In this document: piece after piece, positions 813 to 1,755 of the stretch
Position numbering within the stretch: position 1 is the first letter of the stretch
Layout of the letters: every line of letters starts with the position of its first letter
From: a virus
Taxonomy: Duplodnaviria > Heunggongvirae > Uroviricota > Caudoviricetes
Strand: one strand, 5' to 3'
Virus record (IMG/VR): IMGVR_UViG_2698536435_000010
Length of the DNA: 4,832 bases
The notes under the pieces: model-generated
What the model was told of the DNA's origin: nothing
Seen by the model: only the letters and a program-made list of their open reading frames with translations
The model's database searches: none
Made by a program: the position numbers and the translations under genes

Positions 813-1523
813 ATGACAAACGATTTATATATTAACGGTAAAAAGGTTGATAGCTTCGGAGACTGGTCACCACAGGGTGAACATCCGCTACATACTATTC
901 AGCGTCAAGAGCATGACAAGCGCATTGAGCTTGAGCAAGAGCTAAAGATGTCACCAAAGGTAATTTCCTTTGTGTCTCCTGAGCCTCAAGAAATGCCTGA
1001 TATCTGCAAAACTGAAGCACTATTTGAGCTTGAGCGTGAATATTACCCAGCTTTAAAATCACAGCGTCTTAGACTTGATGTCGCTTACGATGCTGTTAAG
1101 AACTTCGAAGAAACCTCGAAACCTTCAGAATATGATATTGCTTACGAGATTAAGTCAAACCCGTTTATCTATTATGAAGGAAACTTTAATGATGGTTTTG
1201 GTACAGCGATTGAAGACGTTCCTAAAGTTCTTCAAAGTATCCCTGAAGGGTTCCGGTTAATTGATGTCAGACAAGCATTAAGGGGTTCTGGTCAATTTAT
1301 TCTGATGACTGATAAAACAGATGAAGAGATTCTTCAGTTAGCTGAAGCTAATTTGACTAAGCATTATTCCGGTAAACTGGATAAGTTAAAGCAAAAGCTT
1401 AAAAAAGAACTTGATACTATGAAAGAACTTGTTAGTGAATATGAGTCGCAGAAGAAGATTGCTTTGATGGCTGATATTGAGCAGTTAACGAAGATTTCTC
1501 AGAAGTATAGCAAGGCTGTTTGA
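813..1523 (+). CDS. hypothetical protein, 236 aa, acidic with a coiled-coil-like Lys/Glu-rich C-terminus; function unknown
   Basis: Long ORF with Shine-Dalgarno gagga at 801-805, 7 nt before ATG 813. Lies upstream of the tape measure gene. No recognisable catalytic motif. Confidence 0.75.
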   Translation: MTNDLYINGKKVDSFGDWSPQGEHPLHTIQRQEHDKRIELEQELKMSPKVISFVSPEPQEMPDICKTEALFELEREYYPALKSQRLRLDVAYDAVKNFEETSKPSEYDIAYEIKSNPFIYYEGNFNDGFGTAIEDVPKVLQSIPEGFRLIDVRQALRGSGQFILMTDKTDEEILQLAEANLTKHYSGKLDKLKQKLKKELDTMKELVSEYESQKKIALMADIEQLTKISQKYSKAV

Positions 1524-1545
1524 TTATGAATTAAAGAGGTGATTA

Positions 1546-1755
1546 ATGTTTGAAGAACGTTTAGAGACTATTCGGTCTGTTTGTGAAAACTTAAAGTTAC
1601 AAACTAAGCCAGCCTTAAGAATTAAAAACAAACGTCAAGTTATCACCTCACACAAACCAAAAACACGCAAGATTCCAAAGTGGTGTATTGACCGTATTCC
1701 TTCTGATGCTCAAATCATAGGTGAAACGGAATTACATTATCTTGTCCGACATTAA
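1546..1755 (+). CDS. hypothetical small basic protein, 69 aa
   Basis: Very strong Shine-Dalgarno aagaggtga at 1534-1542, 3 nt before ATG 1546. Followed by a strong intrinsic terminator. Lys/Arg-rich. Confidence 0.65.
   Translation: MFEERLETIRSVCENLKLQTKPALRIKNKRQVITSHKPKTRKIPKWCIDRIPSDAQIIGETELHYLVRH

Follow-up and report, generated by a model that had tools for sequence, protein, structure and literature searches.

What do two uncharacterised genes do when they stand directly upstream of a tape measure gene, in the place where tail assembly chaperones are expected? The question is raised by the viral record IMGVR_UViG_2698536435_000010, a 4,832-nt stretch of DNA (hereafter the window), in which genes X (236 aa) and Y (69 aa) precede the gene of a tape measure protein (TMP). 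The original prediction presumed a phage setting and left the choice between a non-canonical tail module and accessory genes. We find that X and Y belong neither to the canonical chaperones nor to a random set of accessory genes. Selected and invariant in place, they lead a module of TMP plus a Dit-like protein that derives from Felix O1-like phages and is carried by a family of integrative islands. The reading that we tentatively prefer, and to which we give slightly less than an even chance, is that X and Y serve the island's own TMP in a form of tail piracy like that of the Vibrio cholerae phage-inducible chromosomal island-like element (PLE), replacing the frameshifting chaperone.

Gene X (positions 813-1523, plus strand) encodes an acidic protein with an isoelectric point (pI) of 5.15, and gene Y (1546-1755, plus strand) a basic protein with a pI of 9.93. 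They are separated by a gap of 22 nt (1524-1545). A Shine-Dalgarno sequence, AAAGAGGTGA, was read from the sequence at 1531-1540 on the same strand, with 5 nt between its end and the ATG of Y. An acidic 236-aa open reading frame (ORF), a basic 69-aa ORF with a strong ribosome-binding site (RBS), a 22-nt gap and a terminator had been predicted, and coordinates, pI, Shine-Dalgarno sequence and hairpin all agree. The reading frame of Y is +1 with respect to that of X, a stop codon is found one codon ahead of the ATG of Y, and the -1 frame is closed by stops throughout; a -1 frameshift architecture is therefore not possible, and the usual frameshift is missing as had been proposed.

Both ORFs are kept open across ~40 loci. 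Pairwise dN/dS values, saturated-dS comparisons included, range from 0.18 to 0.46 for X and from 0.11 to 0.41 for Y. The protein database contains more than 3000 close relatives of X, and homologues of Y form 119 clusters with identity down to 58%. These comparisons indicate that X and Y are real genes under purifying selection. A homologue of Y that had not been called is present even in a divergent island, L010, where it is 68% identical and X only 27% identical. The gene caller overlooked it in this island, which has an extra ORF for a 91-aa acidic protein between X and Y (10697-10972); the same arrangement occurs in some other islands (8233-8481 in L047), and the 91-aa ORF has no family match in L010 or L047.

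Where do these genes reside? Bar one additional insertion, Shigella/E. coli chromosomal loci in the yciI-tonB interval match the window at 100% identity, and the exact X protein is found in database records assigned to Shigella, chiefly S. sonnei. The window is an insertion sequence (IS)-riddled Shigella copy of an integrative island rather than a phage genome; the presumed phage setting thus did not stand, the surroundings being those of an island with a large serine recombinase (LSR). Islands of this family are 10-17 kb in size, with the LSR at one end. They are found at three or more places in the chromosome (split yecE, yciI-tonB and msyB/mdtG-lpxL) and use two LSR families that are 35% identical to each other. 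The gene order g107 - X - Y - TMP - Dit - LSR, where g107 is a small gene described below, is unbroken in 34 metagenome loci, counted as far as each contig reaches, and in 6 genome loci, while the identity of X across these loci goes down to 26%.

The synteny comparison that the original prediction had proposed therefore places X-Y ahead of the TMP gene in every one of ~40 loci, and its statement that the pair lies directly 5' of a tape measure gene is borne out: the TMP is recognised by PF20155 and phrog_4036, and the position is the same throughout. Of its two options, a link to the TMP held, and a phage tail module did not, as tube, sheath, capsid and terminase genes are lacking. No gene for a capsid, terminase, portal, sheath or tube protein was found in any of the ~40 loci. 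Accessory (moron) genes are unlikely because the synteny with the TMP gene is invariant.

An intact relative, L001 of E. coli ECONIH4, is a ~17-kb island that splits yecE and has 89% DNA identity to the window. Its core consists of four small genes, a 520-nt leader, X, Y, a 688-aa TMP and a 257-aa Dit-like protein (PF21821, 3e-17), followed on the opposite strand by a 507-aa recombinase with Resolvase, Recombinase and Zn_ribbon domains. Compact islands of ~10.5 kb at msyB/mdtG-lpxL (Pluralibacter and metagenomes) encode X proteins that are 28% and 37% identical; they are laid out as a small serine resolvase, a replication-initiator-like or 184-aa gene, two to three small genes, the leader and X-Y-TMP-Dit-LSR. 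The genes upstream of X encode small proteins of unassigned function or helix-turn-helix proteins, and a leader of 450 nt lies after them. This layout of 9-12 genes recurs in dozens of loci from several genera, with intact TMP ORFs of 682-725 aa.

Of 5426 complete E. coli genomes, 451 (~8%) contain X-Y DNA, always on the chromosome and in up to three copies. Neither X nor Y turned up in 50,697 phage genomes, in DNA as well as protein searches, or in 72,556 plasmids. A library-wide phmmer search with X retrieved 18 representative clusters, all of the island family; the search patterns used gave no match in species-representative genomes, and IMG/VR yielded a single match, within a predicted provirus contig. 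This last match, together with the battering of the window copy by IS1, IS3-family and IS630-type elements, is what a decayed prophage would offer, with TMP and Dit as remnants left beside the integrase of a temperate phage and X and Y as unrelated accessory (moron) genes. We regard such an origin as highly improbable: it does not fit a layout that repeats at three or more sites and in dozens of loci with intact TMP ORFs, compact islands of 10-11 kb without extra phage genes, the absence of X and Y from the phage genomes searched, or the finding that the nearest phages are the strictly virulent Ounavirinae.

The tape measure gene of the window, on the plus strand, is interrupted. Codons 1-186 (1912-2470), preceded by the RBS AAAGAGGTG at 1893-1901, match phrog_4036 positions 1-79 (1.7e-15) and specify an N-terminus that is 93% identical to that of the L001 TMP. 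The continuation (4084-4806), in frame from 4090 and prematurely ended by an IS630-type element, matches PF20155 (1.8e-22) and phrog_4036 positions 263-470 (1.4e-55). Among phage proteins, the island TMP matches those of Ounavirinae best, over its full length, at ~29% identity and E values of 1e-67 to 1e-73. The Dit-like protein is 60-72% identical to Ounavirinae homologues of gp017 (299 phage records), an uncharacterised protein encoded immediately after the TMP in virulent Felix O1-like myophages. When all island proteins were compared with the complete genome of one such phage, SUSP2, the TMP and the Dit-like protein were the only two matches. By sequence similarity, the nearest relatives of these two island proteins are thus found in the virulent Felix O1-like myophages (Ounavirinae).

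SUSP2 shows what normally stands in the position of X and Y. The gene order of this phage is sheath, tube, gp014 (136 aa, phrog_1613 tail assembly chaperone), gp015 (75 aa, phrog_4963 tail assembly chaperone) and TMP. The two chaperone genes share a 52-nt overlap, with gp015 in the -1 frame and TTTTTTC as the slippery site, and the pair served as a positive control for the frameshift architecture. By gene order, X-Y occupy the position of the SUSP2 chaperone pair, while the island has kept a phage-type TMP and Dit. They resemble the gpG/gpGT pairs (G/GT of lambda, and those of SUSP2) in being two genes directly 5' of the TMP gene, the first of which is acidic. They differ in several respects: there is neither a frame overlap nor a slippery heptamer, Y has an RBS of its own, X has 236 aa versus ~136 aa, Y is basic, and a conserved terminator parts X-Y from TMP. 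Furthermore, no tail tube gene is located 5' of X-Y, which are not part of a tail morphogenesis operon following the tube gene.

Could X and Y nevertheless be canonical chaperones that have diverged past recognition and lost the frameshift, X being an enlarged gpG and Y a detached gpT? The shared place directly 5' of TMP and the acidity of X, which recalls SUSP2 gp014 (pI 4.66), would suit this, as would an N-terminal motif of lineage-A X proteins, YINGKKVD, that resembles IINGKKVN of gp014 (6/7 residues, 16/21 nt). With an E value of 0.15 the motif match lacks significance, and the other X lineages do not have the motif. No tail assembly chaperone family of Pfam, PHROG or NCBIfam matches X or Y even at E <= 1; hhalign gives a probability below 1% for both pairs when X and Y are aligned with SUSP2 gp014/gp015, and BLASTP likewise finds no similarity beyond the N-terminal motif. 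The predicted folds are not gpG-like, Y is basic versus the acidic gp015 (pI 4.48), and X is 100 residues longer than gp014. We therefore hold a common origin with gpG and gpT to be very improbable.

Searches beyond the chaperone families were equally negative. X and Y have nothing meaningful in Pfam, PHROG, NCBIfam and PADLOC scans, and a profile search of PDB sequences gave no match, the PLE and HK97 chaperones (5IR0 and 2OB9) included. The original prediction had recognised no motif and claimed no function, which these scans support; the homology to known structural or chaperone proteins that it had named as a refutation was looked for by sequence, profile and fold, and none was found.

AlphaFold models of X and Y are of moderate confidence (pLDDT 79 and 80). 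For X the model predicts a poorly ordered N-terminal third, then two long helices (66-101 and 170-226) that form an antiparallel coiled-coil hairpin; the stretch between them (~102-168) makes up a small alpha/beta domain at the tip. This domain contains the invariant motifs NDGxG, LPEGxR and DKT and is identical in the E. coli/Shigella variants compared, whose N-terminal third is variable. Y is predicted to start with a helix, to continue with a Lys/Arg-rich linker and to end in a small beta unit. The X model can be superficially likened to holdases of the prefoldin/Skp type and to the P4 Sid external scaffold, all of them generic two-helix hairpins with 5-13% identity to X; the resemblance is one of shape and not of membership, and nothing in them corresponds to the conserved alpha/beta domain at the tip of X.

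X is named 'transposase' by NCBI/UniRef in hundreds of records from E. coli, Shigella, Salmonella and Citrobacter. This name is wrong and has spread into all of these records: Pfam and NCBIfam detect neither a catalytic nor a DNA-binding domain, and the model is that of a coiled-coil hairpin. Nor does X behave as a mobile transposase unit, as it always occupies the same syntenic slot between g107 and Y.

How X and Y are expressed bears on their relation to the TMP. A near-consensus sigma-70 promoter, TTGACA-17-CATAAT with an extended -10 (TG), is located at 387-415 on the plus strand (11/12 matches). It is kept in all lineages (alignment A4), L010 having TTGACA-17-TATAAT at the same place, and it is likely the start of an X-Y(-TMP-Dit) transcript, as predicted from its sequence. 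Between this promoter and X lies a structured leader (423-716, plus strand) with three terminator-like hairpins (423-447, 585-605 and ~682-712), whose segment 575-724 has a folding z of -4.56. A 30-nt hairpin/T-run thus stands directly 3' of the promoter, with two more terminator-like hairpins before X. Two or three leader hairpins are found in divergent islands, and L010 has analogous ones. The leader has no Rfam family match; it may be an element of antitermination control or a small RNA.

A further intrinsic terminator lies in the Y-TMP spacer (~1779-1822, plus strand), where the G+C-rich hairpin GGGGAGAG..CUCUCCC is followed by U7. In the window it folds at -22 kcal/mol (z = -2.9); a simple terminator scan overlooked it because its loop is long. 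A hairpin followed by T5-7 is present in all 30 distinct Y-TMP spacers (30/30), at -13 to -23 kcal/mol. Its inner stem displays compensatory substitutions, and in L010 the stem sequence is unrelated. No sigma-70 promoter was found for the TMP gene. In several islands the terminator is just ~15-35 nt 5' of the TMP RBS, which leaves no space for a separate promoter; expression of TMP and Dit therefore has to come from read-through of the X-Y transcript. Judged from these signals, X and Y lead a putative co-transcribed four-gene unit, X - Y - (terminator) - TMP - Dit-like. The internal terminator would set a high ratio of X and Y to TMP and Dit, or would make TMP-Dit expression conditional, and would thereby do what the frameshift and the operon order do in phages.

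The same signals could be taken to mean that Y, X or both are regulators of TMP-Dit or island expression, for example by antitermination at the conserved Y-TMP terminator, by control of translation or, for the serine recombinase, as a recombination directionality factor. The pI of 9.9 and Lys/Arg-rich linker of Y, the conserved terminators that precede X and separate Y from TMP, and the lack of a detected sigma-70 promoter for TMP all lend themselves to this idea. It is quite improbable in our view, the architecture of X being unlike that of any known regulator. The types of Y do not follow the recombinase family, which makes a directionality factor unlikely: the Y proteins of L030 and L035 are both 97% identical to the reference, and the recombinases of these islands are 93% versus 35% identical to it.

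The closest precedent for this island family appears, by analogy of architecture and logic, to be the V. cholerae PLE, which integrates by means of an LSR and lives as a satellite of ICP1, a lytic myophage (PMC12987554). PLE encodes its own chaperone, TMP and baseplate hub protein BhuB, which are 20, 20 and 41% identical to those of ICP1 (PMC12987554). It builds chimeric tails, in which the PLE TMP is preferred over that of the helper 'through an unknown mechanism' (Mathur, Boyd et al., Nature 2026, PMC12987554). This Vibrio element provided, in 2026, the first demonstration of chimeric tails and of tape measures encoded by a satellite (PMC12987554). Putative tmp genes were also noted in other putative satellites, among which the present island family does not figure (PMC12987554). 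Our literature search found no description of this family or of any satellite of Felix O1-like phages.

PLE and the islands have in common an LSR, the lack of capsid or other tail genes, and defence cargo. Both possess a TMP of low identity to that of the phage (20% for PLE, ~29% for the islands), an adjoining baseplate protein that is better conserved (41% and 60-72%) and one or two small genes directly 5' of the TMP gene. The target in each case is a virulent myophage, ICP1 for PLE and, presumably, a Felix O1-like phage for the islands. There are also differences. The upstream gene of PLE has a gpG-like chaperone fold (PDB 5IR0 versus HK97 2OB9), and X and Y have no such fold; the baseplate partner is Dit-like (PF21821) in the islands and BhuB in PLE. 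The islands are found in Enterobacteriaceae and PLE in V. cholerae. Finally, the chimeric tails of PLE have been demonstrated, whereas the islands are known here from their genes.

On this basis we propose that X and Y would be the island's own TMP-handling partners, which would have replaced the non-homologous frameshifting gpG/gpGT pair. By analogy with PLE, the island would most likely live as a satellite of Felix O1-like phages or, at the least, hijack their tail assembly. X, as a coiled-coil hairpin with a conserved tip (a prefoldin/Skp-like 'holdase' shape), might coat or select the island TMP. Y would be a small specificity or adaptor protein, or a helper inhibitor, and its cassette-like variable C-terminus would follow a variable component of the helper. 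The island TMP has 682-725 aa compared with 746 aa for that of the phage, and chimeric tails built on it would be ~3-10 nm shorter. In its full form, this scheme describes a new satellite family of E. coli, Shigella, Citrobacter and Salmonella that makes chimeric tails on Felix O1-like phages, with X as a selector/holdase and Y as a swapping specificity/inhibitor module; so specific a combination is possible but, to our judgement, doubtful.

The manner in which X and Y vary is relevant here. X is the most diverged core protein between lineages, with an identity of 26-39%, compared with 40-68% for TMP segments and ~60-66% for the Dit-like protein and the recombinase. Pairwise comparison of all loci shows X identity to rise significantly with the identity of the TMP N-terminus (rho 0.36) and with that of Dit (rho 0.54), but not with that of the adjacent Y (rho 0.09). 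The C-terminal ~14 residues of Y come in at least five interchangeable versions, which occur with any X, TMP, Dit or recombinase type.

The rapid divergence of X between lineages would also suit another role, and independently shuffled C-terminal variants of a 69-aa orphan are what an arms race would predict, if X, Y or both were tail-blocking defence proteins that inhibit the tail assembly of Felix O1-like phages, for example by sequestering the helper TMP or its chaperone. The divergent TMP of the island would then be resistant and transduction would be unnecessary. Precedents exist. Rta, an 80-aa orphan of PLE11, blocks the helper TMP, from which the PLE TMP escapes (PMC12987554); Tab, of Pseudomonas prophages, acts on the TMP and has a small anti-Tab protein as its partner (PMC10884400); and the Tai/Ati systems are satellite-borne tail-assembly blockers that reside in phage-inducible chromosomal islands, P4-like elements and prophages (PMC11364771). 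X-Y are comparable to Rta, Tab and Tai, which are small orphans linked to TMP or tail assembly, carried on mobile elements and often paired; Y, with 69 aa, is close in size to Rta, with 80 aa. That X and Y are intact in Shigella despite the destruction of TMP would also suit a defence role.

We nevertheless consider this, the strongest competitor of our preferred reading, unlikely as an account of the pair. Rta is found in one PLE variant only and is expressed before infection (PMC12987554), whereas X and Y are universal and stand behind leader terminators. X-Y are core genes of every island, tied by their operon to the island TMP, unlike defence genes of the variable cargo. Neither protein has a PADLOC defence match, which is a weak test since the library may predate Tab, Tai and Rta. 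Tail blocking is moreover compatible with a satellite lifestyle and does not exclude it.

Several observations weigh against our preferred reading that X and Y serve the island's own TMP in tail piracy. The co-variation of X with the TMP N-terminus and Dit vanishes when three deep lineages are removed, and Y varies independently of all other parts. Y is basic and could bind nucleic acid. The coiled-coil matches of the X model are generic. The 34 metagenome loci include no circular contigs and no terminal overlaps. In the window, TMP is destroyed and X and Y are intact, which may reflect a TMP-independent role or just a recent relic.

If the islands do act in this way, ~8% of complete E. coli genomes, and S. 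sonnei as a lineage, would carry an element analogous to PLE and aimed at Felix O1-like phages, which are common in phage therapy, biocontrol and typing. Such an element could account for resistance to Ounavirinae, or for poor yields of these phages, on some strains. It would also make tail piracy tractable in E. coli and reveal a new way of chaperoning a TMP that needs no frameshift, and a selector role of X would address the step of TMP choice that is still unexplained for PLE.

The Shigella copy itself is heavily degraded, and its module has been inactivated by IS elements that left X and Y intact. The right end of an IS1 (1-52, plus strand) cuts off the upstream island gene g107, and homology to L001 begins at position 53. 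The end sequence at 1-52 resembles that of IS1; in the identical Shigella loci, an IS1 transposase with InsA/InsB Pfam domains finishes just 5' of the window-equivalent sequence. The 1613-bp IS3-family element inside the TMP gene (2471-4083, plus strand) contains orfA (2489-3016) and orfB (3052-4047), has imperfect terminal inverted repeats and comes with a target duplication of 4 bp, GTAT. The Shigella loci that are identical in all other respects do not have this element, and among complete E. coli genomes it is rare (6 of 5426, mainly on plasmids). The IS630-type element that abuts the end of the TMP gene is recognised by the DDE_3 transposase in the identical Shigella loci; its junction corresponds to window 4807-4832.

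What remains of g107 in the window is its 71 C-terminal codons (82-297, plus strand). The intact protein has 100-111 aa, its gene is always located 5' of the leader and X, and Pfam and PHROG scans give it no family match. Only 2 nt past its stop codon begins a hydrophobic mini-ORF of 21 codons (MELVIICFVLIGMIAGASIKV, window 300-365), which is kept in close islands (alignment A4) and could encode a small membrane peptide.

At the end of the islands opposite the LSR, a small serine recombinase of the resolvase/invertase type (~185-190 aa) is usual. It is encoded at 5053-5622 in L010, 5321-5896 in L011 and 4780-5331 in L004, and also in many metagenome loci. The gene next to it is either the one for a 184-aa protein or, in alternation, one for a 285-aa replication-initiator-like protein (phrog_8102, 2e-4).

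The left part of the ECONIH4 island is variable and includes, at 12729-14090 on the minus strand, a gene for an FRG-domain protein that corresponds to the PADLOC candidate defence system PDC-S15 (2e-99), beside a gene for a tetratricopeptide repeat protein. Cargo of this kind is typical of satellites and other mobile elements, and its location suggests a hotspot for defence cargo in the islands.

The ECONIH4 island also contains, at L001 16939-17024, a hairpin followed by ~11 ACC triplets with a strict 5-nt period, (ACCNN)n, which is absent from the window and from the other islands examined. This array is 82% identical over 96 nt to one of three to four intergenic arrays of SUSP2 (NC_028935.2), situated at 27.6-27.8 kb and 28.98-29.22 kb and each followed by another hairpin; it is the sole non-coding DNA common to an island and SUSP2. 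Its periodicity is reminiscent of TRAP-type triplet arrays. The array could be a shared regulatory, origin or protein-binding element.

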